From: a virus
DNA length: 49,335 nucleotides
IMG/VR virus record: IMGVR_UViG_3300026116_000052
Location: 1 to 49,335 of that record
Direction: 5' to 3' (one strand)
Shown: positions 1,781-49,335 of the stretch, piece by piece
Position numbering within the stretch: position 1 is the first letter of the stretch
Layout: each line of letters opens with the position of its first letter
Translations under genes and position numbers: made by a program
Notes under the pieces: model-generated
What the model saw: the letters and a program-made list of their open reading frames with translations, nothing else
Told to the model about the DNA's origin: nothing
Databases searched by the model: none

Positions 1781-1812
1781 AGTCTAGATAGGTTAGACAC
1801 GTTATAGACTTA
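1781..1812. repeat. Copy A of a conserved about 29-bp intergenic repeat (TCTAGATrGGTTAGACnCnTTATAGACT)
   Basis: 26/29 identity between 1782-1810 and 40563-40591, in the same orientation, read directly. Confidence 0.8.
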
Positions 1813-2157
1813 GGAGCTACCCACGTTGAGTTTCTCGTTCTCGAACGTGGCGATCTGCTCCAGAGTCTCCTGTTCCATCGCCTGGTATTCCCGAATCTTG
1901 TCCTGAATGGAAGCGAGCTTCTGCTTCAGCTTCTTCAGGTCGGTCTTGACTTCCGCCAGCTCGAGGTTGTCGATCCGAATGTCACGCTTGTTGCGGTTCT
2001 TGAACACCACACGCTCGGTGCCAAGAAGCGGACGACCCAGCTTCTCCTCCATCAGCATCCGGTGGGTCAGGATCCACCCCCGAGCCGTCTTCGTGTAGTG
2101 GTAGCCATTTGCGCTCCACCGCTCGTCGCCGACTGCTGCTGCAGCTCCTCGGGCCAT
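1810..2157 (-). CDS. HNH-family-like protein with degenerate catalytic motif and C-terminal coiled coil
   Basis: The layout NGYHY...HRMLMEEKLGRPL...VVFKNRNKRDIRIDNLEL resembles HNH_3 endonucleases, but the canonical His residues of the HH/HxN core are replaced (VF). The tail is heptad-like and K/E/Q-rich. Confidence 0.5.
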   Translation of the reverse strand: MARGAAAAVGDERWSANGYHYTKTARGWILTHRMLMEEKLGRPLLGTERVVFKNRNKRDIRIDNLELAEVKTDLKKLKQKLASIQDKIREYQAMEQETLEQIATFENEKLNVGSS

Positions 2158-4541
2158 TACAGTTCACCCCATCGGGTTCCGTAGGTGACGTCCACTTCGA
2201 AGGGGACGTAGGTCGTGTACTTGGCAGCCTCTTCGAGCATGACCTGCCTGACAAGCTGGGCCACCATCTCCTTGTCTTCTTCCTTGCACTCCCACACGAG
2301 GGCGTCGTGAATGAGAAGGCGGAAGAAAGCGATGCCGCGGAGCATCGGACGGAGACGGACGAAGGCGCTGAGGCAGATGTCAGAGGCGGTACTCTGTGGC
2401 TTGAACGACAATCCTTCCTTCAGGACGTCGTCACGGTTCTCGTTCGTGATAAGCATGAAGCGCCGAGAACGTCCGAAGGCTGTGACGAGATCCTTACCAT
2501 CGAGGATCTGCTGCTGTGTCTCCTGCTGCCAGGCAACAGTTGCGGGGATGAGACTCTTGAAGATGCGGACGCCCTCTTCGGCTTCGTGCACAGGGATCTC
2601 GTACTCACGAGCGATCGAGTAGTGAGTACGGCCGTAGCCCAGTCCGTAGAAGTACGCTTTCACACGAATGCGTTCTTCCTTGTCAAACGGCGCTTCGTGG
2701 TGGTAGATGTCCCTGCCGAGCTCGTCGAACAGGTCTCGGTCGGGGTCGCAGAAGATCCTCTGCAGGTACTCGTCTTTAGCCTCCGTGCAGATTACGCGCC
2801 CTTCTGCCTGTTTGAAGTCGGCTTGACCGAGAACGTTCCCTTCTCTTGTGACTGTGAACTGGTTGCGGATTCGCTTGTCACGGACAACATTCTGAAGGTT
2901 AGGGTTTCGGCTCGCCAGCCTTCCACTTGTAGTTCCATGCAGTAGGTACGTCGTGTAAACCCGTCCTCGATAAGTACGGCTACGAAGTCCCTTGATGAAT
3001 GTACCGTGGCGCTTAGTCTTGTATCGATGATCGAGGAGGAGCGTGAGAAACTGACCGACTTGAGACGTCGGCGCAAACTTCGGTTGAAGCCTTTCCAGCG
3101 TGTCCTTACTTGTATCCTTGACCCTAATCTTCTTATCACTGAGGAACTCCCTTACCTGCTTGGGGCTCCGAGGGTTGATACCTCCACCCCGTACGTCGTA
3201 GTCCTTGTCAACAACTGCGTCGATCTTCTCTTCCAGCTCCGACAGCTCGCCGGTGTACTCTACCGACAGGTCCAGGCTGTACTTCTTGTCGAAGGCAACA
3301 CCGTTCAGTTCGACGAACTTCAACTGGTTGCCAGCCCGAACAAGGAAGTCGTGAAGCCCTCGGAGGGTCTTGAAGCCCTCCATGGCTTTGTCAGGATCAC
3401 TTACAGGAGCGTCGAGTTCCTTCTCGAAGAGCTCCCACAGGTCCCAGGTGACTGCATCGTCGTAGGCGTTGTACTTGTAGAGGATCGGTCGAGGAATGTT
3501 CGCGTAGTTCTTGTTCTCCCCCAGGTACGGTGCGATCTCGTCCTTCCAGCTAGGCGCCCCCAGAAGCTCCACACCCAGTGTCTCGAGGTCGTGTCCTCCT
3601 CGACGTTCGTCGGTGACGTAGTGAGCCAGCATCGTGTCGCCGTGGACGTCGACGTTGCCGATAAGAGGGTACAGTCCCTCACAGTCGAACTTGCCGTTCT
3701 GTGCGATAAGAAACTTGGAAGCGAAGAGTTGCTTCAGGGCATCCAGTACCAGCTTCGACTGGCAAGCGTTTTCCCCGAAGACAACCACCTTGCCTTTGGC
3801 GTAGCAGATGCCGATGCAGAGCATCTGGTAGTGGTTCGGGTGAACGAACTCCTTGTCCTTGTCGATGCCGGTCTCGATGTCGATGACTAGCTTCGGAAAA
3901 GCTTCCCCCATAAGCTGCGCAATGACGTGGAGAGCGCCCTCCTCATCATCAACGGTTCGCCATTCAGGCGGAGTCCAGGTGGTGGGGGGCAGTTTAATTT
4001 TGCCGACGTCGAGGAGAAGATCCTTGAACGCGTCTCCATTCCGAAGGCAGTACGCGGGGTGGACAGTAGGAACGATCTCGACGTCTGTCCTGTATGCTCG
4101 GCGGCGCGGACCAACACGCGTTGCCAGAATACCCTTTTTGGTTCCCAGTAGATACTGGCTTGGAGTGTTCCCAAGCGACAGAACAACATCAACTCCGGCG
4201 CCCTCGATTTCACGGACCAGTCGCTTACCGCAGGCAGCGATGGCAGTAGGCGAAGGCGTCGCGTTCGATTTCGGTCGGCAGAGGCAGGCATTGGTGAGGT
4301 ACACCTCGTTTGGGTCGATCTGGTGATGATCCAGAACGACCTTCAGGAGGCGACCAGAGGGCCCGATGAAGGGTTCTCCCTTAGCCGCCTCCTGAAGGCC
4401 GGGCGCTTCACCGACTGCCATGATCTTCGGCATGCCCAGGTTCACCGGAACCTTCGACGGAACGAAGACCCCATCCTCGTAGAGGTCGCAGTTCTCACAC
4501 TCGGCGTCCGGGTGCTTACGAACGACAGTCGGCTCAGTCAT
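2157..4541 (-). CDS. Family A DNA polymerase with 3'-5' exonuclease and an N-terminal family-4 uracil-DNA-glycosylase-like domain
   Basis: UDG4 motifs: GEAPG, HPAY, and Cys ligands CENC / CLC / C. ExoI motif: LVIDIETG. Pol motif A: DFKQAEGRV. Motif B: RVKAYFYGLGYG. Motif C: LIHDAL. Confidence 0.85.
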   Translation of the reverse strand: MTEPTVVRKHPDAECENCDLYEDGVFVPSKVPVNLGMPKIMAVGEAPGLQEAAKGEPFIGPSGRLLKVVLDHHQIDPNEVYLTNACLCRPKSNATPSPTAIAACGKRLVREIEGAGVDVVLSLGNTPSQYLLGTKKGILATRVGPRRRAYRTDVEIVPTVHPAYCLRNGDAFKDLLLDVGKIKLPPTTWTPPEWRTVDDEEGALHVIAQLMGEAFPKLVIDIETGIDKDKEFVHPNHYQMLCIGICYAKGKVVVFGENACQSKLVLDALKQLFASKFLIAQNGKFDCEGLYPLIGNVDVHGDTMLAHYVTDERRGGHDLETLGVELLGAPSWKDEIAPYLGENKNYANIPRPILYKYNAYDDAVTWDLWELFEKELDAPVSDPDKAMEGFKTLRGLHDFLVRAGNQLKFVELNGVAFDKKYSLDLSVEYTGELSELEEKIDAVVDKDYDVRGGGINPRSPKQVREFLSDKKIRVKDTSKDTLERLQPKFAPTSQVGQFLTLLLDHRYKTKRHGTFIKGLRSRTYRGRVYTTYLLHGTTSGRLASRNPNLQNVVRDKRIRNQFTVTREGNVLGQADFKQAEGRVICTEAKDEYLQRIFCDPDRDLFDELGRDIYHHEAPFDKEERIRVKAYFYGLGYGRTHYSIAREYEIPVHEAEEGVRIFKSLIPATVAWQQETQQQILDGKDLVTAFGRSRRFMLITNENRDDVLKEGLSFKPQSTASDICLSAFVRLRPMLRGIAFFRLLIHDALVWECKEEDKEMVAQLVRQVMLEEAAKYTTYVPFEVDVTYGTRWGEL

Positions 4542-4628
4542 CTAAACTCCGTAGTAATGGTAAAGCAGTCCCGTGGAGACGAACACGAACAATGACAGCA
4601 GGGCTACGAGAACCCTAGCCGCGGTCAC
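4542..4628 (-). CDS. Micro-ORF, 28-aa single-pass membrane peptide
   Basis: GTG 4628 follows GAAGGAG. The peptide is MTAARVLVALLSLFVFVSTGLLYHYYGV. Its TAG abuts the polymerase ATG. It is too short for the ORF track. Confidence 0.3.
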   Translation of the reverse strand: MTAARVLVALLSLFVFVSTGLLYHYYGV

Positions 4629-5403
4629 CCCTGACCCACTCCTTCACGGCGACGATGTTCTGCCAGGTCTGGTTGCTCTTGGTCGTCGGGATCTTCGTCC
4701 CGAAGTAGTGTTCGACCCTGTCCACCTCCGTGATGTCGTTACTCAGCGTGATGCCCTGGATGCTGGCGTGGAAGGGCATCGAGGTGTCCACGCCTCGAAC
4801 GTTCAGCTGACGGAAGTGCCGGCCGTAGCCGCTGAGCTCGTCGGCCACCTTCGGGTTCGTACCGAGCAGGTGGATGTCGATCGGTTCCTCGCCGGGACCT
4901 TCGGTGGAGCGGATGTAGTAGGCCACCTCCACACGAGCACGTTCACTCGACAGCGTCGTCAACAGATGCCGAGGGATGCCCAGGCAGGTGACGAACGGCG
5001 TCTCGTTCCGGTAGAAGTGGATCATCGCCTTGATCTCGTCCAGGGTCTGGCCCTGCAGGACACCCATGAAGTTGAACGTTTGGGTGTCGACGAAGGGTAA
5101 GGCCTCCATGACGAGCTTCTTGGTACCCTCCATGTCACCCATCACGTCGGGCAGGACGATCTCGTGTGCGGAGATCTCGTAGGCACGGTCCTGGACTTCC
5201 TGGGAGCCGAGCGTCTTGACCAGAGGGTCCATCTCGGCCTCGGCGACACCGTTGTCCAGGATGATGTAGTCGCCACGCTTGTGCGCCGTCTTGAAGGCCT
5301 TGACCGAGCCTTCGTGGCTCCAGTGGATGGGCAGAGCCATCTGGTAGCCAGTGTGACGGATGGCGTTGATGTGCCTGAAGGGTGGGATGAGTGCGAGTTT
5401 CAC
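4615..5403 (-). CDS. dpdA: DpdA-like DNA-guanine transglycosylase (tRNA-guanine transglycosylase fold)
   Basis: 262 aa with an N-terminal layout (MKLALIPP..., ILDNGVAE, LLGTNP, RGVDTSMPF) that resembles phage DpdA/TGT-like proteins as I recall them. It sits in the same coupled operon as folE/queD/queE/queC. Confidence 0.65.
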   Translation of the reverse strand: MKLALIPPFRHINAIRHTGYQMALPIHWSHEGSVKAFKTAHKRGDYIILDNGVAEAEMDPLVKTLGSQEVQDRAYEISAHEIVLPDVMGDMEGTKKLVMEALPFVDTQTFNFMGVLQGQTLDEIKAMIHFYRNETPFVTCLGIPRHLLTTLSSERARVEVAYYIRSTEGPGEEPIDIHLLGTNPKVADELSGYGRHFRQLNVRGVDTSMPFHASIQGITLSNDITEVDRVEHYFGTKIPTTKSNQTWQNIVAVKEWVRGDRG

Positions 5404-5582
5404 CGGCAGACCTCTCCGAGGCCGAAGGGGTGGATGACTCCGAAGGCCGTCAGTAGGACGAGTGACACCAGACTGACGAAGAAGAGCAGGATGATGATCA
5501 TGCAGCCGAGGGTGAGTCGGTTGACCGCCTTCTCCTTGTACTCGTCCTTCGGCTCATCCGGCGTCGGGGCTTCCCTGTTCAC
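5400..5582 (-). CDS. Small membrane protein
   Basis: Acidic N-terminus followed by one long hydrophobic segment (LGCMIIILLFFVSLVSLVLLTAFGVI). Its stop overlaps the dpdA ATG (ATGA). Confidence 0.45.
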   Translation of the reverse strand: MNREAPTPDEPKDEYKEKAVNRLTLGCMIIILLFFVSLVSLVLLTAFGVIHPFGLGEVCR

Positions 5583-5835
5583 GTGCCACCTCCTCTGCCT
5601 GGATACGATCCTGCAGCAGACGGACCTTGACGTAGGTGTAGCGGGCGTAGTTGGCGAGATCGATGATTTCCATCAGAGCCTCGTCCATCGTGTCGACGTT
5701 GAGGAACTTGCCGGGCCCGTACTTCTTCTCGCCCATGTCGTGACGCTCCTGGCACAGAGCGTCGAACTCTTCGGAGAAGTTCGCGACCTTCTCAGCGAGG
5801 GTCTCGTGTTCCGGTTCGAGGTTGAATTCCGGCAT
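5554..5835 (-). CDS. Hypothetical small helical protein, possibly related to all-alpha NTP pyrophosphohydrolases
   Basis: GEKKYGPGKF...EALMEIIDLANYARY recalls the KYG...NW / helical layout of MazG-related phage dNTP diphosphohydrolase domains. It has an ATGA overlap with the upstream MazG-like gene. Confidence 0.45.
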   Translation of the reverse strand: MPEFNLEPEHETLAEKVANFSEEFDALCQERHDMGEKKYGPGKFLNVDTMDEALMEIIDLANYARYTYVKVRLLQDRIQAEEVAREQGSPDAG

Positions 5836-6206
5836 CAGCTCACCTTCTTCTCGAAGCGTGCGATGTTCTTGTTTCGCTTCGCCATGTACTGCGCCAGGAG
5901 ATCGATGCCGAGGATGCCGGCGAGGTTGAGGACGTAGATGAACACGTCCGTGAGCTCCTCGGCCAGGTCGTGCTGGGTGATCTCCGCCGCGAAGTCGAGC
6001 GAACCACGGTCGATCTTCTTGACGATGTTCGCGACCTCACCCGCTTCGCCGCACAGCGAGAGGGTGTGATGCATGAGGGCCTTGATCTGATCGGCCTGTT
6101 CGGGCGAGTCGATCGGGATGGCCGTCGGGAACCACCGCTTGCTGTCGTGTACGCACTGCCTTTGGAGCTGGTTCAGCAGGTGTGCGGGCACCTGTTCTTT
6201 AGCCAT
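5835..6206 (-). CDS. MazG-like nucleoside triphosphate pyrophosphohydrolase
   Basis: 123 aa. GEAGEVANIVKK and EELTDVFIYVLNLAG match the EEXXE/D-type MazG helices. Confidence 0.65.
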   Translation of the reverse strand: MAKEQVPAHLLNQLQRQCVHDSKRWFPTAIPIDSPEQADQIKALMHHTLSLCGEAGEVANIVKKIDRGSLDFAAEITQHDLAEELTDVFIYVLNLAGILGIDLLAQYMAKRNKNIARFEKKVS

Positions 6207-6945
6207 GCTTGCGCTTCCCTTCGATCAACTGCATGAACTCGGCCTTTGCAGTGCGCGTGTGGTCTCCGAACACGCCACGCATCGAGGACGTCGTCGTAAC
6301 GACCCCCGGCATCTCCACACCCCGCATCGCCATGCAGAGGTGTTCTCCTTCGAGGATGACTGCGACACCTCGGGGATTGAGACGACTTTGGAGCTCTGCG
6401 GCGATGAAGCTCGTCAGCTCCTCCTGCACCCACAGACCCTTCGCCGCCCACTTGACGAGGCGGCCGAACTTGCTCAGGCCGGCGATCAGTTCGTTGGGTA
6501 CGTAGCCGATGAAGGCCTGGCCGTAGAACGGGATCACGTGATGGGCACAGAGCGTGTAGAACGGAATCGGACCGAGGATGATCATCTCGTCCGACGTCGC
6601 CTCGAACGTCGTGAACTTGAACTCTTCACGCTGCGTGAGGTCCCGGATCTGCTGGGCGTACCTGAGTGGGGTCTCCCTCATGTGTCCCTGGTCACGCCAG
6701 CCCTTGGCGACGATGTCCAGGATCTGACCGGCGTGGTGGGCGAGGAGGTCGAGCTTGTCGATCGGGTCCTCTTCGTAGGAGCCGCCCATCGGGTAGGGAT
6801 CCTGGTACAGTGGGAACTGTTCCTTGACACTGTCCTGGGCGATACCCTTGGTCTCGGGATCGAACAATGTTCCCTGCCTCTCGATCTTGTCCAGTGGGTG
6901 GCTACCGTGCCGCAGCTGACCATGCGGCGGTCCGACGAACTCCAT
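6199..6945 (-). CDS. folE: GTP cyclohydrolase I with an about 70-aa N-terminal extension
   Basis: Motifs LCAHHVIPF and EHLCMAMRGV. ATGA overlap with the queE stop. Confidence 0.85.
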   Translation of the reverse strand: MEFVGPPHGQLRHGSHPLDKIERQGTLFDPETKGIAQDSVKEQFPLYQDPYPMGGSYEEDPIDKLDLLAHHAGQILDIVAKGWRDQGHMRETPLRYAQQIRDLTQREEFKFTTFEATSDEMIILGPIPFYTLCAHHVIPFYGQAFIGYVPNELIAGLSKFGRLVKWAAKGLWVQEELTSFIAAELQSRLNPRGVAVILEGEHLCMAMRGVEMPGVVTTTSSMRGVFGDHTRTAKAEFMQLIEGKRKHG

Positions 6946-7625
6946 CAGATGCCCCTCTTGTCGCGGTCCCAGATGTAGTTGTGCACCTGGACGTTGAGCT
7001 TCCAGTCCAGGCGATTCGTCATGACCCAGTCGACCAGTTCCGCCGTCTCGAGCTTTCCCCAGGCGACACCGTAGTACACCTGCACAGGAGAACCTGGGTG
7101 GAAGATGTGCTCGTTCCAGAGCTCGATAGCCTCGTCGAAGTCCTTCACGTTAGCGATGACGAACTTGATCGCATCCTTCTGCTTCAGGAGGCGGATGTTG
7201 CCGATCCTGTTCGGGTTGTACGGATCCTCGCCTGAGCCCTGAAGCTTCCAGTCCATGATCACTCGTACGCGTTCGTTTCCGACCCAGCCAGGGAAGCGTA
7301 GAGTCCCATTGGTGAAGACCTCGACCGTGTAGCCCTCGCGCAACAGGAGCTGGAAGAGTTCACGAGTCTCTTCGTCCGGCTGCAGGAAGGGCTCACCTCC
7401 GGTAAACACCACACGCCGCGGGTAGGGCTGGACGAGATCCATGATCTGCTGGGGCTGGAGATTCTTCCACTCGTGCCGGTACTTCTCCGGGTCGATGGCG
7501 TGCTGCGTGTCACAGGGCCATCCCGGGCAACGCAAGTTGCACCCTGCGAACCGAATGAACTGCGTCATGCTTCCAGCGCCAGGGCCTTCACCCTGCACGC
7601 TGGTGTAGATCTCGGACAGCCTCAC
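6945..7625 (-). CDS. queE: 7-carboxy-7-deazaguanine synthase (radical SAM)
   Basis: SVQGEGP, the CNLRCPGWPCD cluster and GGEP. Start was chosen at the GTG in a GTGA overlap with the queD stop, after AAGGAGG. Confidence 0.8.
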   Translation of the reverse strand: MRLSEIYTSVQGEGPGAGSMTQFIRFAGCNLRCPGWPCDTQHAIDPEKYRHEWKNLQPQQIMDLVQPYPRRVVFTGGEPFLQPDEETRELFQLLLREGYTVEVFTNGTLRFPGWVGNERVRVIMDWKLQGSGEDPYNPNRIGNIRLLKQKDAIKFVIANVKDFDEAIELWNEHIFHPGSPVQVYYGVAWGKLETAELVDWVMTNRLDWKLNVQVHNYIWDRDKRGI

Positions 7626-8140
7626 TGTTCCTCCTTGCCGAGCGACTGGACCCACGTCGCACTGTTGACAGGTCCTTCGCTCACCGTTACCTTCTCCACC
7701 CAGACCCTGGTCTTCGACTCCTTGTACACTTCGTCGAAGGTCTGCTGGAGTTCTTCCACCAGCATCGCTGCCACTGCTTCGACCGTCGGCCAGGGCATCT
7801 CGGGCCAGAAGATGGCATTGCCCTGAAGGTCTTCAGGCTCGCCGAACACGAAGACCTTGCAGCCGTCGTCGAGGAAGACCTGCAGCAGCGAGTCGTCCTT
7901 GCCGAGCATCGTTCCGTGGTCCAGGAACTCGTCGATGAAGTTGCGAACGATCTTCTTCACCGTGCTGTAGTCGACGCTGATGCCGTTCTCGTCCATGCCC
8001 TGGTCCACGTCGTAGCGCTGCAGCTGAACGTCTGCCCACCACGAGTGCCCGTGGATACTGGTGCACTTTCCTTCGAGGAAGGGCAGGCGGTGAGCCGTCT
8101 CGAAGTTGTGCTTGATACTGATCAACGCCTGCCCGTGCAT
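7622..8140 (-). CDS. queD: 6-carboxy-5,6,7,8-tetrahydropterin synthase
   Basis: FETAHRLP and CTSIHGHSW motifs. ATG 8140 is in an ATGA overlap with the upstream stop. The 99-codon upstream extension in the ORF track is R/G/P-rich and was rejected. Confidence 0.85.
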   Translation of the reverse strand: MHGQALISIKHNFETAHRLPFLEGKCTSIHGHSWWADVQLQRYDVDQGMDENGISVDYSTVKKIVRNFIDEFLDHGTMLGKDDSLLQVFLDDGCKVFVFGEPEDLQGNAIFWPEMPWPTVEAVAAMLVEELQQTFDEVYKESKTRVWVEKVTVSEGPVNSATWVQSLGKEEQ

Positions 8141-8454
8141 CAGTCCTCCACCTTCAGCCGGATGCAGCGTCGCACCGGGTCCGTTTCCATCTTCAGGTTC
8201 CGTGTGCTGACACGAATGAGCTCTTCGTCGTAGAGCTCGACCACGTGCTCGTGTCCCTTCTCCGGGTCCGCGCCGTCGCCGACGGCCTGCAGGCGTTCGG
8301 TCAGCACACCGATGACGCACAGTAGCCGGCTGAGCTCCGAACGCAGATCGGCGACCGTCTTCTGGATCGGGTCGCTGAACCTGTGCGTGTGGTCTTTCGA
8401 CGTCTCGTCGTTGGCGTGCGCCACGGGGTGGGTCCAATCCTCTTCGACACTCAC
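8140..8454 (-). CDS. Hypothetical protein inside the deazaguanine operon
   Basis: GTG 8454 is in a GTGA overlap with the upstream stop, after GGAAGGAAAAG. 104 aa with no motif I recognise. Confidence 0.5.
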   Translation of the reverse strand: MSVEEDWTHPVAHANDETSKDHTHRFSDPIQKTVADLRSELSRLLCVIGVLTERLQAVGDGADPEKGHEHVVELYDEELIRVSTRNLKMETDPVRRCIRLKVED

Positions 8455-8639
8455 GGTTCGATCTTTTCCTTCCAGGTCCACCGGACCTTTTCGAAGTTCT
8501 GCTTGCACTGCTTGAAGTAGTCCAGGGTAGCGAAGTCGCTGCTATCTTCCCAGACGGTCTCCCAGCGGGCTGCCCGGTTCACTGCTACGCCGACGATAGC
8601 CCCCGGTGCACGCCAGACCTCGATGACGTGTTTAGCCAT
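8451..8639 (-). CDS. Hypothetical 62-aa protein inside the deazaguanine operon
   Basis: ATG 8639 overlaps the queC 3' end by 8 nt. The sequence is Trp-rich (MAKHVIEVWRAPG...WETVWEDSSDF...VRWTWKEK). Confidence 0.5.
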   Translation of the reverse strand: MAKHVIEVWRAPGAIVGVAVNRAARWETVWEDSSDFATLDYFKQCKQNFEKVRWTWKEKIEP

Positions 8640-9363
8640 CCAGGAGGCCCTTCTTGACCGACACCCCCAGGCCCGGGATGTCGACGCGACGGTCCTCGTA
8701 GTCGGTCGGGTCCTTGACCTTGGCGAGCTCGAAGGCTTCCTTGCGCTCGACGCACGTGCCGCACTTGCCGCAGTGCAGCTCGCCGCCCTTGTAGCAGGAC
8801 CAGGTGACCGTCCAGTCGACGCCGAGCGCCTCGCCGTCGAGGGCGATGTCCTCCTTGCGCTGCATGATGTACGGCGCGTAGAAGTAGAAGGGATCGTTGG
8901 CGAACCCTTCGTTGCCGAGCTGTGCGGCCTTCTCAGCGGCGTTGACGAAGTTCGGTCGGCAGTCCGGATAGATGTCGTGGTCACCACCGTGCACGCCGGT
9001 CGCCACCATCTCCGCCTTCTGGTCGACGGCGTAGGCCGTGGCGATGGAGAGCATGATCATGTTGCGGTTCGGGACGACCGTCGCCTTCATGTTCTCGGCG
9101 GCGTAGTGACCCTCCGGCACCTCCTGACCGATGTCGACGAGTGCCGACGACTGGAGGAGTTGCGTGAGGCTGCCCAGGTCGACGACCTCGTGACGCACGC
9201 CGAACTTGTCGGCCCAGTACCTTGCGAAGCCGATCTCACGCGTGGCATGCTTCTGCCCGTAGAAGAAGGTGATCGGGAGGGGTTCGAAGCCCTCCTTGCG
9301 GATGCGGTGGAGGAGGGTCACACTGTCCATGCCACCGCTGAGGACGACAACTGCCTTACTCAT
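8632..9363 (-). CDS. queC: 7-cyano-7-deazaguanine (preQ0) synthase
   Basis: PP-loop VLSGGMDSV and C-terminal zinc site CYKGGELHCGKCGTCVERK. 243 aa with no extra amidotransferase domain. ATGA overlap with the upstream stop. Confidence 0.9.
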   Translation of the reverse strand: MSKAVVVLSGGMDSVTLLHRIRKEGFEPLPITFFYGQKHATREIGFARYWADKFGVRHEVVDLGSLTQLLQSSALVDIGQEVPEGHYAAENMKATVVPNRNMIMLSIATAYAVDQKAEMVATGVHGGDHDIYPDCRPNFVNAAEKAAQLGNEGFANDPFYFYAPYIMQRKEDIALDGEALGVDWTVTWSCYKGGELHCGKCGTCVERKEAFELAKVKDPTDYEDRRVDIPGLGVSVKKGLLDG

Positions 9364-11570
9364 TTGGTTGGTACTCCCTTTGTTGGGTGGGATTTGCCCC
9401 CGAAGGGGAAGAGACGCTCTGTCGCGCCCTGACGCTGACGGTCGATCTGTCCGCGCTGCTCCAGCGTGCCGAAGATGAAGTCTGCTGTCCTTGCCGTGAG
9501 GTGATACCTCTGCATGAGTACAGAACGTGCCACGCCAGGGTCTCGTCGGATGGCTGTGAGGATCTTGTCGAACTCTCGTTCGGTGGATCCCAGTCCTACG
9601 TTGCTCACGACTTCGTTCGTATAGGCACGCCACTGCTGACCGTATCGCATGGCGACCAGCAGGTCATTCAGTTCGACTCGGATCTCCCTTCCCTGGGGAA
9701 CACGCTGCCGACTCGCTGCGATCAGGACAGCTGCCTTGAGGATCGACTTACAGAGTCGGTCGTAGGTGGGGGTGTAGATGTCGGGGTGCGGGGACTTAAG
9801 GCCTGCGTCCATCATCATGGCTTCGAGTGCGTTGTACCGCTTCCACGCTTCAGGAGTAAGCATTGCCGACCATGGCTGAGGCTGGTGGTAAACGAGTTGC
9901 CCACCGACAGTCTGAAGGGACGGCTCATCCTTGTAGTGGGTTGCCATCTCCTTCAGCTTGTCCATGATCCTGTTGCGAGCGGTAGTATTCGCTAATGAGG
10001 GCGGCCCGAGCGGCCTTACCCGGCCGACGTCCGACTCCGCCGTGATAAAAACGAAGCGAGGAATGAAACCACTCGACACGTGCTCGGACGTCAGCAGGCC
10101 GCAGACCTTGTTCCTGATACCACCTGCGAACAAAATCAAGCACGGGTCCTTCACCTCGATGATTTCCTTCTTCAGGATCCGCTTCTGGAGCTTGCCATCG
10201 TAGAGCTTCGTGAAGGTTTCGGCCATCCCAGCGTAGTAGTCCTTCTTTACCATAGCCTCCAGAAGGCCACTGAATTCGTCCCTCAGGAAGATGGATGGTT
10301 GACCTGGCCTCGTCGAGAGTGACCCCATCAGTCCCTCGATGCTGCCATCGGTCGCAAGGATGCGTGCGGAGTCGATCTCCTCGATCAAGTCCATAGCGAC
10401 GTCCATAGCGGTCGATTTCCGCGTAAGGGTTGTATCGGCTAGAATCATGAACCACAAGTTCGGCTTGATCGTTCCAAACGAAGTGGGCAACCGGACCATT
10501 CCGGAGAGCAGCGAGCTTAGTAAGATCAAGGCCCCCGCTTGGTGGTACTGAGGTGCTGCGTCGCCCAGGGAGCTGGCCCATTCGATGTACTCCTCTACGA
10601 ACGTGGTGACGCCACTGATGCGACTTTCTTCCTCCTGCGTCAGGAGCGGTAACTGCTTGCGTGTGGTCTCCGGATTGAGGAGCTTCCGGTTCTCCTGATG
10701 CCTGGACCACGAACGACAAACGTCGGCCCAGAGGTAGGTCAGCGGCTTACCGTCACGCTTGAACTTGTTCACCGCCGAGTCACGGCAGATGACGTAAGTC
10801 TCTTCTCGTGTCAGCTCCGCTTCGAAGCAGACCATCTCCAGCTTCCAGAGCGGTTCATTCCAGCTACCGTCAGGCTCGGTCTCGAAGAGCATCCGTGCCT
10901 GAGGAGGGAGGATGTCTTCGTATCGCTCCAGCAAGAGTTCGCCGGTGACGTCATCGATGTCTGTTGGGAAGGGAAACTTCTCGTGCTGCTCGACGATGAT
11001 CTTCGGGTACTGCTTGAAGTCGTCGGGCCGGTACTTGTTCCGATTGATCTCGAGGATGCGAACCTGTGCACCCTGGTACTGCGGCTTGAAGTTCTGCGTA
11101 CCCGGAACTCGGAGCAACTGCGAGAGATCCCATCCACTACGGTCAGCCCCCTGGAACGCGTGGTAGTATGCGATACGCTTGGTGATAGCTTCGGTGTCTT
11201 CAGGCAGCTGGTCCTCTTCGAAGATCCAGTATGCCTGATAACGGAGAGGAGAGGACTCCACGACCACGCTCGGTTCCACGAGCATGTTCTCGTACCCGCA
11301 CTCGTCCAAGTCAGCCCACGCGTTCGTGCAGATCTTGACATTGTCTTTGATCCGTCGAGGCTTGCGCAGCAACTGCGGGCAGAAGTAGACGTTGTGCGTA
11401 GGTGTCACCTTGTCGATGAATTCCATCATCTGCGGCAACTGAGATGGCCAGGCGAAGAAGCGCTCCTGGAACATCTCGGAGTCGCGGGCGAGGGTTGCGA
11501 TGCAGATGAAGCCCTCAGTATGGGGGCCGAGGAGAAGCTTGAAGAACGTCTCGACTTGCTTTGACAACAT
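9360..11570 (-). CDS. Primase-polymerase (AEP) fused to a P-loop helicase-like (DUF3987/D5-type) domain
   Basis: N-terminal AEP-like AWADLDE (DxD) and VPGTQN motifs. Central P-loop-like ADTTLTRKST. 736 aa from ATG 11570. The 31-codon upstream extension is R/G/P-rich. Confidence 0.65.
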   Translation of the reverse strand: MLSKQVETFFKLLLGPHTEGFICIATLARDSEMFQERFFAWPSQLPQMMEFIDKVTPTHNVYFCPQLLRKPRRIKDNVKICTNAWADLDECGYENMLVEPSVVVESSPLRYQAYWIFEEDQLPEDTEAITKRIAYYHAFQGADRSGWDLSQLLRVPGTQNFKPQYQGAQVRILEINRNKYRPDDFKQYPKIIVEQHEKFPFPTDIDDVTGELLLERYEDILPPQARMLFETEPDGSWNEPLWKLEMVCFEAELTREETYVICRDSAVNKFKRDGKPLTYLWADVCRSWSRHQENRKLLNPETTRKQLPLLTQEEESRISGVTTFVEEYIEWASSLGDAAPQYHQAGALILLSSLLSGMVRLPTSFGTIKPNLWFMILADTTLTRKSTAMDVAMDLIEEIDSARILATDGSIEGLMGSLSTRPGQPSIFLRDEFSGLLEAMVKKDYYAGMAETFTKLYDGKLQKRILKKEIIEVKDPCLILFAGGIRNKVCGLLTSEHVSSGFIPRFVFITAESDVGRVRPLGPPSLANTTARNRIMDKLKEMATHYKDEPSLQTVGGQLVYHQPQPWSAMLTPEAWKRYNALEAMMMDAGLKSPHPDIYTPTYDRLCKSILKAAVLIAASRQRVPQGREIRVELNDLLVAMRYGQQWRAYTNEVVSNVGLGSTEREFDKILTAIRRDPGVARSVLMQRYHLTARTADFIFGTLEQRGQIDRQRQGATERLFPFGGKSHPTKGVPTK

Positions 11571-11666
11571 TACTCCTCGGAGGAAAGGGTGGGGAGGGGG
11601 AGATCGGCTTCTGTTCCCGTATCCTCGTTGCCCCGGCCGCCAACGGCCCACCCTAGCGTTCACCTG

Positions 11667-27881: not shown

Positions 27882-28282
27882 CGGGACTAGACGATTCGTT
27901 ACCAACATGTAACACTATGGTAATGTAACAACCGTCCATAAGAGTCTATATAAGTGACGATAGGTCTATAGACCGCGCTTGTTATATACTGGTAACAACC
28001 TGATTGGCGTAGTGACCTAGGTCGCTATGTGTTACCGTGTATAGGGTAGAGTCATGTTACAGGTATATAGTAGAAGTGTTTAAGGTGTCTCATAGAGATT
28101 TTATAGTCATAGGTAAGGCTCGCGTTGACCTTTACTTTTACAAGGTAACATGGAGCGCAAACGATCCGGATAGGAATGTCTAACCTGTCTCTTTGAGGTA
28201 TTAGTATATGTATTATGTATTATATGTTATATATAGTTATATTGTTACTGAAACGTCACCTCTTTTTTTCTATAGAGCCTCA
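27882..28282. repeat. AT-rich non-coding island with GTAAC-core iterons and an A/T unwinding-type tract (origin-like or regulatory)
   Basis: GTAACA/TGTTAC occurs at 27909, 27925, 27992, 28030, 28055, 28145 and 28243, plus extra GTAAC/GTTAC cores at 27898, 28337 and 28356. The tract tatgtattatgtattatatgttatatatagttatatt lies at about 28207-28243. No ORF is present. Confidence 0.5.
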
Positions 28283-28318
28283 AAGCCTCAATGATACCAT
28301 ATTATCCCATTGAGGCTT
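28283..28318 (-). terminator. 11-bp-stem hairpin downstream of gene 28357-28704
   Basis: AAGCCTCAATG / CATTGAGGCTT with a 14-nt loop, 39 nt after the stop. Confidence 0.5.
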
Positions 28319-28356
28319 GATCCTTTAGGTGAGCTTGTAACCTACGTGTCGACGCG

Positions 28357-28704
28357 TTACCGAAGGTCGATGACCTCAGAGGTGTCGAGCTCCGCGTCAG
28401 GGTAGAAGAAGAAGTGGGATGCAGGTTCGGGGTTCCAAGTGGTCGGAGGAGGCACATCAGGGAACTCGTTGAAGGGTGTACCTGTGGGTGTCGGTGAGGG
28501 GACCGTGGTTGGGGTACGGTGGTTGTACACATCCTCGTAGCAGTGCTTGGCATCGTGGTACGCGTCCATGCATACCTTGTACTGCTTGTCCGAGTCGGGT
28601 GCCGTCGCGTCGCTGATGGTTCCGTAGATGGAGATTACGGCCACCGCCGTACCGACTGACGCCCAGATGCGCCCTTTACGAGTGGCCGGAAGTTTGATCT
28701 TCAT
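28357..28704 (-). CDS. Secreted or membrane-anchored protein with Pro/Thr-rich linker
   Basis: N-terminal MKIKLPATRKGRIWASVGTAVAVISIYG signal-anchor. TPTTVPSPTPTGTP linker. The RBS-to-ATG spacing is long (12 nt). Confidence 0.55.
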   Translation of the reverse strand: MKIKLPATRKGRIWASVGTAVAVISIYGTISDATAPDSDKQYKVCMDAYHDAKHCYEDVYNHRTPTTVPSPTPTGTPFNEFPDVPPPTTWNPEPASHFFFYPDAELDTSEVIDLR

Positions 28705-28816
28705 GAGATGTCTAGACCTCCTTGTCTGTGTAGGTGGGTATACTTGCAGGTAGGGGTAGGGTACTCTACCACCTTGAGAGGGTGGTGGTACCCTACCCAA
28801 CCAACCAGTACACCTA

Positions 28817-29101
28817 CTACTTGATGTTGTTCTTCTTGCAGTACTTCACGAACCACTCAACGAGATCGGAGTGCTTGACGAACTTCTTGTTGTTCTCGAG
28901 GTAGGAGGGGATCATGTTCTTCTTCGTGTAGGTGTAGAACATCTGAGGAGGGAGAACCTTGTCGACCCCCATCTTGACGAACTCTTCGTTGATCACCTTC
29001 GCGCACTGATAGGGGGAGTAGGACTCCTCCGAGATGGGAACCTCCACCTCGAAAAGCTGGGTCTGGTTGGGGTCGATCTGGATGTTGGTCTGCTCGGACA
29101 T
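28817..29101 (-). CDS. Lys-rich HTH-like protein, lower-GC gene, paralogous to the core of 23882-24556
   Basis: ATG 29101 lies 6 nt after GAAGGGA. YSPYQCAKVINEE...LPPQMFYTYTKKN...LVEWFVKYCKKN aligns with the 23882-24556 product. Confidence 0.55.
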   Translation of the reverse strand: MSEQTNIQIDPNQTQLFEVEVPISEESYSPYQCAKVINEEFVKMGVDKVLPPQMFYTYTKKNMIPSYLENNKKFVKHSDLVEWFVKYCKKNNIK

Positions 29102-29198
29102 GATGCATCCCTTCATGTAGGGCTCAACTTGAACTCGTACTGATTCGGTACGAGGAGGGCTATACATATACTGGTTAGGTAGATGTATATCCTTCTTC

Positions 29199-29219
29199 GT
29201 ATCGAAGTAGCTTCGATAC
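29199..29219 (-). terminator. Hairpin downstream of gene 29233-29421
   Basis: 9-bp stem GTATCGAAG / CTTCGATAC with a 3-nt loop. Confidence 0.45.
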
Positions 29220-29232
29220 TGAGAGGATGTTG

Positions 29233-29421
29233 TTAGGAGTTACACTCACATTTGTTAGTAGCGCTACGTACAATGTAGCATGCGGGACACAATTTGGTGA
29301 GATTGGTTTGGCGCTTAATTGGTTTGCGATTGAAGGGGTGAGTAGGGTTGCTTGTGTTGTTGTGATACTCTCCCTTTTGATTGTATCGAAACTCTTGAAA
29401 GTTTGAGTGTGTGAGTGACAT
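29233..29421 (-). CDS. Hypothetical 62-aa protein in a low-GC segment; first gene of the left arm
   Basis: ATG 29421 lies 7 nt after AGGAG. Composition is clearly more AT-rich than the rest of the genome. C-terminal CPAC...CEC. Confidence 0.45.
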   Translation of the reverse strand: MSLTHSNFQEFRYNQKGEYHNNTSNPTHPFNRKPIKRQTNLTKLCPACYIVRSATNKCECNS

Positions 29422-29651
29422 AATATATCTCCTATATTTTTGTGAGATGTGTGGTATGTAATATTATGTGTAGTTGTGTAGTATGTTGATTATTGAGTTG
29501 TTATAAAATTGTGAGTTGATGTTGTGTTGTTTTTTTTTTTATTTTTTGTTTGTAACTATATTATATCGCATAACGCAAGATCCATACAAGACCCGTGGGG
29601 TACCATTGGAGCAAGGAGTAAAAGCATGTGTTACTGTAAGTCACCATGTTC

Positions 29652-29679
29652 TTGTGTGACACCTGTTGTACCATATAAT
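29652..29679 (+). promoter_or_regulatory. Candidate late-operon promoter (TTGTGT-N16-TATAAT)
   Basis: Read on the plus strand, 29 nt upstream of ATG 29709. Followed by AAGGAGACGAAGGAGG. Confidence 0.4.
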
Positions 29680-29708
29680 ATACAAGGAGACGAAGGAGGT
29701 GCCTCAGC

Positions 29709-30089
29709 ATGGCAGACCGTGATGGGTGGGTCAGCGACGACGACCTGAGCGAAGCCACTCAGCTCGCCAGGTCAGTCTACGGCGCCAACGCCTCCAGCAC
29801 CTCAGGCATCAGCGCCACGTTTGCAAAAGCACAGGCGTCGAAGATCTTCGAAGAGAATGCTGCGACAGCCGCCACCACGCTCGTCACGCTCGCCAAGTCT
29901 GCGCAGAATGAGTCCGTGCGGCTGAAGGCGGCCGAGTCGATTCTCAACCGCGCTCTTGGCACGCCTGTCTCGGCCGACAAGCTCGGAGACCAGACAGGGC
30001 AGCTGGACAAGCTGTTCGAGGCGCTGGGCGACAGCGAGGACACAAACCAGCCTGACTACTCGACGGCAGAGGGCCCGTCCACTGACTGA
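29709..30089 (+). CDS. Terminase small subunit-like protein
   Basis: First gene of the structural arm, immediately upstream of terL. 126 aa. ESVRLKAAESILNRALG resembles a helical motif common in small terminases. Confidence 0.45.
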   Translation: MADRDGWVSDDDLSEATQLARSVYGANASSTSGISATFAKAQASKIFEENAATAATTLVTLAKSAQNESVRLKAAESILNRALGTPVSADKLGDQTGQLDKLFEALGDSEDTNQPDYSTAEGPSTD

Positions 30090-48685: not shown

Positions 48686-49335
48686 TGTCCTACAAGTCCA
48701 GCCCTCGCGGCTCGCGCCCCGTCGACAAGATCGCCATCCACACGGCCGAGGGTTCGCGCACGGCTGCCTCGCTCGGTTCGTACTTCTGGCGTGACGACAT
48801 CCAGGCATCGAGTCACGTCGGCATCGATGCGAACAACACCCTGCAGTACGTGCCGTACGATCGTGCAGCGTGGACGCTCCGTTCAGGCAACCCGATCAGT
48901 GACAATGCCGAGATCTGCGGCTTCGCTCACTGGTCGCGGGAGCAGTGGCTGTCCACCGGTACGGTCGACGGCTGCGTGAACCCTCGAGCGATGCTCGATC
49001 GTGCTGCTGCGTGGATTCGTTCGCGTAGTCAGGCTCGCGGTGTGCCGATCCTCAAGCTCATCCCCAACCAGGTCGCTGCGGGCTGGGATGGTGTGATCGG
49101 TCACGTCGACTGGACCCTGGGAATGGGAGACGGTACCCACACCGACCCAGGGCCGAACTTCCCGTGGGACTACGTCATCAACAAGGCTCTGAGCGGAAGC
49201 TCACCTATCATTCCGGAGAAGTACATGAAGTCCTGCCAGGTGCTCAGCCTGCCCAACACCCAACTCTACCAGGACAAGGACGAGGAAGGCTGGGTTCGTC
49301 TTCCCTTCTCTGTCGAATCCGGCAGCAACTCGTCC
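48685..49335 (+). CDS. Endolysin, N-terminal N-acetylmuramoyl-L-alanine amidase (Amidase_2/PGRP-like) domain; continues at 1-360
   Basis: IAIHTAEG, SSHVGID, AWTL..GNP and GHVDW...THTDPGPNFPW match zinc-amidase motifs. There is no stop before the window end. It is absent from the ORF track for that reason. Confidence 0.8.
   Translation, partial: MSYKSSPRGSRPVDKIAIHTAEGSRTAASLGSYFWRDDIQASSHVGIDANNTLQYVPYDRAAWTLRSGNPISDNAEICGFAHWSREQWLSTGTVDGCVNPRAMLDRAAAWIRSRSQARGVPILKLIPNQVAAGWDGVIGHVDWTLGMGDGTHTDPGPNFPWDYVINKALSGSSPIIPEKYMKSCQVLSLPNTQLYQDKDEEGWVRLPFSVESGSNSS
49237..49335. repeat. Second copy of the 99-bp closure overlap
   Basis: Identical to 1-99. Confidence 0.9.

Follow-up and report, generated by a model that had tools for sequence, protein, structure and literature searches.

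The stretch of DNA analyzed here (the window) is the whole IMG/VR virus record IMGVR_UViG_3300026116_000052, 49,335 nucleotides long. Its minus strand carries a block of genes, at positions 4615–9363, that combines the four enzymes FolE, QueD, QueE and QueC with a small protein of the DpdA3 type. The block runs from the stop codon of a 262-amino-acid (aa) open reading frame (ORF) at 4615 to the ATG of QueC at 9363. A first-pass annotation, made from the letters alone, had described five ORFs here (QueC, QueD, QueE, FolE and the 262-aa ORF), and all five lie on the minus strand where it had placed them. The five are real, but they make up only half of the block, which has ten ORFs and also includes a MazG-like gene, orf93, orf60, orf122 and orf62. 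The five central genes are the following.

8632..9363, minus strand: QueC, 7-cyano-7-deazaguanine (preQ0) synthase, 243 aa; Pfam PF06508 at 4e-58, TIGR00364 at 178.5 bits

7622..8140, minus strand: QueD, 6-carboxy-tetrahydropterin synthase, 172 aa; Pfam PTPS at 1.7e-22, PHROG 2389 (QueD-like) at 1e-28

6945..7625 (or 6945-7655), minus strand: QueE, radical-SAM 7-carboxy-7-deazaguanine synthase; Radical_SAM at 8e-8, PHROG 2076 at 1e-36

6199..6945, minus strand: FolE, GTP cyclohydrolase I, 248 aa; PF01227 at 1.2e-46, PHROG 2197 at 5e-47

4615..5403, minus strand: DpdA3-family transglycosylase-like protein, 262 aa; minimal TIM barrel (hhalign, AlphaFold (AF2), Foldseek)

Significant family matches directly support the identities that had been proposed for the four pathway enzymes. 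All four families score above the Pfam threshold. QueC also exceeds the curated NCBIfam equivalog cut-off of TIGR00364 (150.3 bits), while FolE, QueD and QueE are significant but remain under their NCBIfam equivalog cut-offs; for QueE, the specific models TIGR03963 (1e-43, full length) and TIGR04349 (2e-41) both fall below the curated values. Every motif quoted beforehand is present in the translations. QueC contains the PP-loop SGGMDS (9322-9339) and CGKCGTC (CxxCxxC), and its 243 residues leave no amidotransferase extension or extra domain. In QueD, CTSIHGHSW corresponds to the QueD-type CxxxHGH signature (CTSIHGH at 8045-8065) and not to the DpdL form LxxxHRHxF. QueE has GGEP and CNLRCPGWPC (7512-7541), the latter holding all three cysteines of the protein; its start is likely the GTG at 7625, judging from an upstream AAGGAGG and from the QueD stop, which it overlaps as GTGA, with 7655 as the alternative. 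FolE has CAHH and HLCMAMRG, and overlaps the QueE stop through TGATG. Judging from these families and their catalytic signatures, the full pathway from GTP to preQ0 is encoded. The overall description of the module as this pathway plus a TGT-fold transglycosylase is supported by the family matches, the motifs and the predicted fold.

The sequence of the 262-aa ORF has no match in Pfam, NCBIfam, PHROGs or the PDB, and a database search with it returned 100 homologues, none of them annotated. The "TGT/DpdA-like layout" that had been read from it was thus not confirmed by the Pfam, NCBIfam and PHROGs scans, but it was confirmed by the predicted fold and by homology to DpdA3. An AF2 model based on 55 aligned homologues is a (beta/alpha)8 TIM barrel (pLDDT 95.5, pTM 0.92). 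When it was compared with the PDB by Foldseek, nearly all of the top ~50 hits were TGT enzymes, bacterial and human, with E values from 2e-6 and TMq of 0.62-0.66 for the top hits. Among viral models (BFVD), the first hit was M4SLA5 (CGPG_00065) of Cellulophaga phage phiST, at E 1e-14 and TM 0.79, which is the founding protein of the DpdA3 subfamily (Hutinet et al. 2023, PMC10516641). Ranked well below it were a Vibrio phage nt-1 protein and actinophage entries named "queuine tRNA-ribosyltransferase", which are probably DpdA1, by annotation alone.

Sequence profiles lead to the same protein. In hhalign, the family profile and phiST CGPG_00065 match along their whole length (probability 99.4%, E 3.5e-21), and BLASTP of the 262-aa protein against phiST DpdA3 gives E 4e-6 at 19% identity. 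A phmmer search from phiST (threshold E<=1e-3, Z = 5e6) matched 73 of 223 family members among the 253 proteins searched. One hidden Markov model (HMM) iteration from phiST retrieved the window protein at 3.2e-67, and the iterated search never hit 9g DpdA1, the orf93 controls or the other unrelated controls. DpdA3 is operationally defined by psiBLAST from the founding member with at most 3 iterations (PMC10516641), and by that definition, on sequence grounds, the 262-aa protein is a DpdA3. Gene context agrees with this membership, as the gene lies in one block of overlapping codons in common with FolE, QueD, QueE and QueC. The identity of the protein is established because three independent lines converge, namely the fold predicted from the homologues and matched to the PDB, the closest viral structure, and the sequence profiles.

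A check against TGT-fold profiles, set beforehand, was split: the Pfam hmmscan gave no hit, but the Foldseek fold and the transitive homology through phiST were positive, and phiST DpdA3 has been linked to PF01702 by HHpred (PMC10516641). The closest analogue is DpdA3 and not the DpdA1 of phage 9g and the actinophages, with which the earlier comparison had been made. In hhalign, the family profile does not detect 9g DpdA1 (probability 0.2%), and the link of the 262-aa family to DpdA1 is therefore structural only.

The protein contains the motifs ILD50NG, PD86V, VLQ117G, H178LLG and VD206TSMP, and the residues D50, N51, G52, E55, D86, H178, L180, G181, E189 and D206 are invariant across 56 homologues. 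In the AF2 model, D50, D86, L180 and D206 sit at the C-terminal ends of strands. A sub-threshold HMMER alignment (E 0.2) with the bacterial DpdA (bDpdA) structure 7ui4 puts D206 opposite the nucleophile Asp256 and L180 opposite Leu236, the stacking residue; the roles of the two bDpdA residues are taken from PMC10164549. From motif order only, D50 and D86 may be equivalent to Asp95 and Asp130, respectively. The protein lacks the large bDpdA insertion (Ins8), and because it has a single cysteine, it has no zinc site.

No QueF, Gat-QueC, ArcS, DpdL, DpdM or DpdN was found among the block ORFs with Pfam, NCBIfam and PHROGs. These tailoring families are also missing from Pfam or PHROGs matches of 23 further ORFs of the minus-strand early arm; about a dozen early ORFs are unannotated, so that absence is not proven. 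A search of all six frames found neither the QueF NADPH motif nor the DpdL motif. The earlier statement that QueF, a Gat-QueC extension and ArcS are lacking thus agrees with the ORF scans and, for QueF, with the six-frame motif search. Since no QueF, Gat-QueC, ArcS or DpdL was found within reach of the scans, preQ0 is the simplest base, as had been proposed. The product 2'-deoxy-preQ0 (dPreQ0) is a prediction for this metagenomic genome. High or complete substitution is plausible by analogy: all three measured DpdA3 phages, phiST, CP220 and immuto_2-6A, show complete replacement of G (PMC10516641), whereas in DpdA1 phages that have this pathway, replacement reaches at most ~30% of G (PMC6884629; bioRxiv 10.1101/2025.10.29.685425).

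The five further ORFs of the block are listed below.

8451..8639, minus strand: orf62, 62-aa ORF; its ATG overlaps the QueC stop (ATGGCTAA)

8140..8508, minus strand: orf122, small ORF; TGATG overlap with the QueD start; true start uncertain

5835..6206, minus strand: MazG-like all-alpha nucleoside-triphosphate pyrophosphatase, 123 aa; PF03819 at 2e-5 (above cut-off), PHROG 229 at 1e-11

5554..5835, minus strand: orf93, conserved accessory protein of the cassette; present in 51/57 related blocks

5400..5582, minus strand: orf60, small ORF; hydrophobic membrane-like stretch IIILLFFVSLVSLVLLTAFGVI; GTGA overlap with the DpdA3-like start

In the PDB, the MazG-like protein is closest in sequence to small MazG proteins and DCTPP1 and, more weakly, to MazZ; it also aligns with phiST CGPG_00068. 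Orf93 has the invariant residues G35, K38, Y39, G40, E56, D59, N62 and Y63, and its AF2 model is a two-helix hairpin (pLDDT 75). Profile searches of Pfam and the PDB, and Foldseek of the model, returned no family or fold match for it. The idea that orf93 is a half-MazG or DUF1599-like protein was unsupported, with an hhalign probability of 0.5% against the MazG-like family. Orf122 has no Pfam, NCBIfam or PHROGs match, and orf62 has no PHROG match and is absent from the 57 related complete blocks described below. Relatives have small ORFs in the place of orf122, but homology to it was convincing only in the locus L008, where the C-terminal part is conserved. Orf60, orf122 and orf62 are restricted to the nearest relative. 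The hydrophobic orf60 protein sits mid-cassette among otherwise cytoplasmic enzymes, and L008 is the only near relative that has it.

The translational coupling noted earlier is real. At the junctions read from the primase to the 262-aa ORF, stop and start codons overlap as ATGA, TGATG, GTGA or ATGGCTAA, beginning with the QueC ATG at 9363, which overlaps the primase stop (ATGA). The orf93/orf60 junction is an exception, with an overlap of ~29 nt if GTG 5582 is the start. From the listed ORF coordinates, orf62 and orf122 overlap by 58 nt, the true start of orf122 being uncertain. A 73-nt gap separates the 262-aa ORF from PolA. A promoter and terminator scan found no such sites above chance within the block.

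The cassette recurs in a large set of relatives, comprising six contigs with homologues at 28-83% identity and 80 IMG/VR loci; 57 loci have a complete block from primase to PolA. The common order is AAA_24, DUF669, primase, QueC, QueD, QueE, FolE, MazG-like, orf93, DpdA3-like, UDG::PolA and HNH, and this conservation directly supports an operon-like cassette. QueC and FolE are present in all of the complete blocks (57/57 each), QueD in 55/57, QueE in 49/57, orf93 in 51/57 and the MazG-like gene in 47/57. In this large phage lineage, DpdA3-type genes are thus strictly coupled to the whole preQ0 pathway, QueC included. The class of system is known; the pairing of FolE-QueD-QueE-QueC with DpdA3 is new, and so is the conserved accessory pair formed by the MazG-like gene and orf93. 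The two are candidates for the factor that is missing when DpdA3 is inactive in heterologous tests.

In the closest IMG/VR relatives (L009-L019, ~40% identity in the DpdA3-like protein), the window QueE has no tblastn match, and ~0.8 kb is found at the QueE position. These loci may carry a different QueE type between QueD and FolE. The extra ORFs in the cassettes of relatives include no QueF, and only DJ-1/PfpI, DUF3310 and DUF6884 were identified among them. A DJ-1/PfpI gene (class-I glutamine-amidotransferase-like) lies between QueC and QueD in 4/57 cassettes, together with a 117-151-aa partner, and the phages that bear it may make a different derivative. Two of these insertions are located as follows.

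L003, 5917-6519: DJ-1/PfpI insertion

L045, 4557-5243: DJ-1/PfpI insertion

The DpdA3-like family comprises 5341 representative clusters in public genomes and metagenomes (E<=1e-3), and a pattern scan of 185,579 species genomes found no relative. By sequence, the family appears to be virus-only. The only cultured carriers with a detectable homologue (29-31% identity) are the Bacillus phages BSP7, BSP19 and BSTP5/8/10/12 and the Weizmannia phage Youna2. We found no report in the literature on the DNA chemistry of BSP7, BSP19, the BSTP phages or Youna2. In these cultured Bacillus and Weizmannia phages, the presence of dPreQ0 (possibly at 100%) and the mechanism of DpdA3 are testable. This is of interest as DpdA3 is the least understood transglycosylase subfamily, tied to complete G replacement and with no member shown to be active.

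Among known systems, the DpdA3 phages, represented by phiST, are the most similar. They have the same transglycosylase subfamily, with a minimal barrel of ~260 aa, and in phiST the DpdA3 gene also lies between the deazaguanine synthesis genes and the DNA polymerase, with a MazG-like gene in the same interval (described as MazG/dUTPase-like and located between the pathway genes and the polymerase in PMC10516641). The differences concern the base and the neighbors. PhiST has no QueC and arrives at dDG through DpdL, the CP220 pathway ends at CDG and the phage carries dADG, and immuto_2-6A adds QueF and DpdN, leading to fdPreQ1. In contrast, the window encodes exactly FolE-QueD-QueE-QueC, with no tailoring enzyme found, a pairing with DpdA3 that none of the three measured phages has. 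PhiST also has an AAA_18 kinase-like neighbor, CGPG_00066 (L002 46381-46860, minus strand; 9e-7 to this P-loop kinase family), which adjoins DpdA3 and has no counterpart in the window. The BSP7 group shares the order primase-QueC-QueD-QueE-FolE-...-DpdA3-like-PolA. It differs in its low-GC Firmicute hosts, in a PolA that is only ~29% identical, and in the gene upstream of the DpdA3-like one, which is P-loop kinase-like instead of MazG-like; in BSP7 (L001 7441-8004, plus strand), this P-loop protein has a weak deoxynucleoside-kinase (dNK) hit. The kinase-like neighbors of DpdA3 in phiST and BSP7 are hints of steps at the nucleotide level.

DpdA1 systems (phage 9g, Escherichia phage CAjan, Mycobacterium phage Rosebush and Pseudomonas phage iggy) have the same four preQ0 genes and the three-motif layout LD[SN]G, H..G, D[ST]S. 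In the Queuovirinae and actinophages, too, a TGT-fold DNA transglycosylase adjoins the polymerase, and the replication module contains DUF669, an AAA ATPase and a primase. The product in CAjan, Rosebush and iggy is dPreQ0. However, these systems use another DpdA subfamily, replace 0.1-30% of G at sequence motifs, and have no conserved MazG-like gene or orf93 in their cassettes; 9g further differs in having Gat-QueC and making dG+. The bacterial DpdA of Salmonella Montevideo (PDB 7ui4; PMC10164549) has the same TIM-barrel TGT fold and inserts preQ0 into DNA, and its Asp nucleophile and hydrophobic stacking residue are those that align at E 0.2 (D206/Asp256, L180/Leu236). Conversely, bDpdA has 400+ aa with the large Ins8 insertion, requires the DpdB ATPase, modifies <0.1% of G and is part of a restriction-modification system, whereas the window has no DpdB or DpdC.

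We propose that the cassette serves to hypermodify the phage DNA: the preQ0 pathway and guanine exchange by a DpdA3-type enzyme would lead to restriction-resistant, dPreQ0-rich DNA, and we consider this reading reasonably probable. FolE, QueD, QueE and QueC would convert GTP to the free base preQ0. The DpdA3-type barrel would then exchange guanine for preQ0 at C1' of deoxyguanosine in phage DNA, giving 2'-deoxy-preQ0 by the double-displacement chemistry of TGT, with D206 as the putative Asp nucleophile and D50 as the candidate Asp general acid/base. If the measured DpdA3 phages are a guide, much of the G and possibly all of it would be exchanged, which would protect the DNA from restriction enzymes whose sites contain G. 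The conserved MazG-like pyrophosphatase probably supports this through its action on the (d)NTP pool, for instance by keeping dGTP low. In this scheme we infer the substrate (DNA or free nucleotide), the inserted base, the extent of replacement and the role of MazG. Genomes with 7-deazaguanine bases resist many restriction enzymes, yet they are targets of newly found defence glycosylases (bioRxiv 10.1101/2025.10.29.685425).

Several observations weigh against this proposal. With hmmscan at E<=0.01, the 262-aa protein has no match to Pfam TGT (PF01702), DpdA (PF23859) or DUF6610/DpdA4 (PF20314), and its relatives reach these families only below threshold (the BSP7 homologue with DUF6610 at 0.0039, P0071 with DpdA at 0.066). 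The Pfam test has little power for phage DpdAs, however, because the validated 9g DpdA1 is also without a hit in the same scan. The mapping of residues onto bDpdA depends on the E 0.2 alignment, and no DpdA3 enzyme has ever been active in vitro or in E. coli (PMC10516641). The same authors argued that DpdA3 is unlikely to insert preQ0, their examples being without QueC or the full pathway; the strict coupling of QueC and DpdA3 found here argues against this suggestion. Finally, the four uncharacterized ORFs of the block (orf62, orf122, orf93 and orf60) could alter the end product.

The barrel may instead act on free dGMP, dGDP or dGTP before replication, with the MazG-like enzyme removing dGTP and UDG::PolA incorporating dPreQ0TP, so that replacement would be complete. 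Full replacement, as in all measured DpdA3 phages (PMC10516641), would be easier to reach through the nucleotide pool; cells infected with CP220 contain the ADG nucleoside in their cytoplasm (cited in PMC10516641), and a modified dGTP has been raised as a possibility (PMC6884629). The retention of the MazG-like gene in 47/57 cassettes and in phiST, the P-loop kinase-like genes that adjoin DpdA3 in phiST (AAA_18, 9e-7) and BSP7 (weak dNK), the minimal size of the protein (262 aa, one cysteine, no Ins8) and the inactivity of DpdA3 expressed in E. coli (PMC10516641) are all in line with such a pre-replicative route. Nevertheless, no TGT-fold enzyme is known to use free nucleotides, the window has no recognizable nucleotide kinase (the sole Walker A among the early genes is in AAA_24), and the authors who defined DpdA3 favored post-replicative insertion. 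We therefore regard the pre-replicative route as unlikely, though deserving serious attention. Its strictest form, in which every G is 2'-deoxy-preQ0 made before replication by the barrel on a free deoxynucleotide, while the MazG-like protein clears dGTP and UDG::PolA incorporates the product, seems to us distinctly doubtful. If true, it would provide the first TGT-fold enzyme that acts on nucleotides and would decide whether fully substituted 7-deazaguanine genomes are modified before or after replication. The isoelectric point (pI) was rejected as a test of DNA versus nucleotide substrate, as it gave no separation (5.64 for the DNA-acting 9g DpdA1 versus a family median of 5.8).

The final base could also be other than dPreQ0, for example dADG, dG+, dPreQ1 formed via host QueF, or an undescribed derivative, made through the small ORFs or host enzymes. 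The four uncharacterized ORFs, with orf93 kept in 51/57 relatives, would leave room for this; the GATase-1-like DJ-1/PfpI gene of some relatives suggests that end products may vary within the lineage, and minor extra derivatives are frequent in known phages (PMC6884629). The small ORFs, however, have no enzyme-like match or fold, the QueF motif is found in none of the six frames, and QueC is above the equivalog cut-off for preQ0 synthase, which makes another final base a rather remote prospect. Least probable by far, in our view, is an auxiliary metabolic module that supplies queuosine or preQ0 for host tRNA, with the 262-aa protein acting on tRNA or being unrelated to base exchange. The same pathway enzymes do serve bacterial tRNA queuosine, and there is no direct biochemical evidence for DpdA3. 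On the other hand, the protein (262 aa, one cysteine) is without the zinc site and the C-terminal tRNA-binding parts of TGT, and the family appears to be confined to viruses (none in the 185,579 species genomes scanned by pattern versus 5341 clusters in public genomes and metagenomes). The DpdA3-like gene is moreover fixed between replication genes in all loci examined, and every measured phage with pathway genes and a DpdA has modified DNA (PMC6884629, PMC10516641).

The genes that flank the block in the window are the following.

9360..11663, minus strand: DNA primase (DUF3987/RepB_primase type in relatives), directly upstream of QueC; PHROG 10514 at 2e-88

2157..4541, minus strand: family-A DNA polymerase with an N-terminal family-4 UDG domain (UDG::PolA); PF00476 at 3.5e-56, PF03167 at 8e-26

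1810-2157, minus strand: HNH_3 endonuclease, overlapping the PolA stop; same position in almost all related loci

The UDG domain of UDG::PolA has intact GEAPG and HPA motifs. In L003-L008 and the IMG/VR loci, too, UDG::PolA invariably follows the DpdA3-like gene, and the fusion itself is kept at this position in the Pfam-annotated related contigs. UDG::PolA fusions have been described in SPO1-like and SP15-like phages (bioRxiv 10.1101/2025.03.26.645540).

As a whole, the window represents the complete genome of a tailed phage. An exact 99-bp repeat is found at its two ends (1-99 = 49237-49335), so that the contig is circularly closed and contains 49,236 unique bp. A megablast search of the module against phage genomes gave no match. 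A scan of the genome for restriction-site avoidance found no strong signal except for CTAG. The TATA tetramer is strongly over-represented genome-wide (51 observed vs 18 expected). The minus-strand early arm encodes an SNF2 helicase, a PD-(D/E)XK nuclease, AAA_24, DUF669, the primase, the preQ0/DpdA3 module, UDG::PolA and the HNH endonuclease. Late genes lie on the plus strand from ~29.5 kb and include the terminase, a Mu-type portal, an E-type capsid protein, the tail tube and the tape measure. At 28000-30000, where the minus-strand early and plus-strand late arms diverge, GC falls to 0.48 and the AT skew flips sign; this is probably a promoter or origin region.

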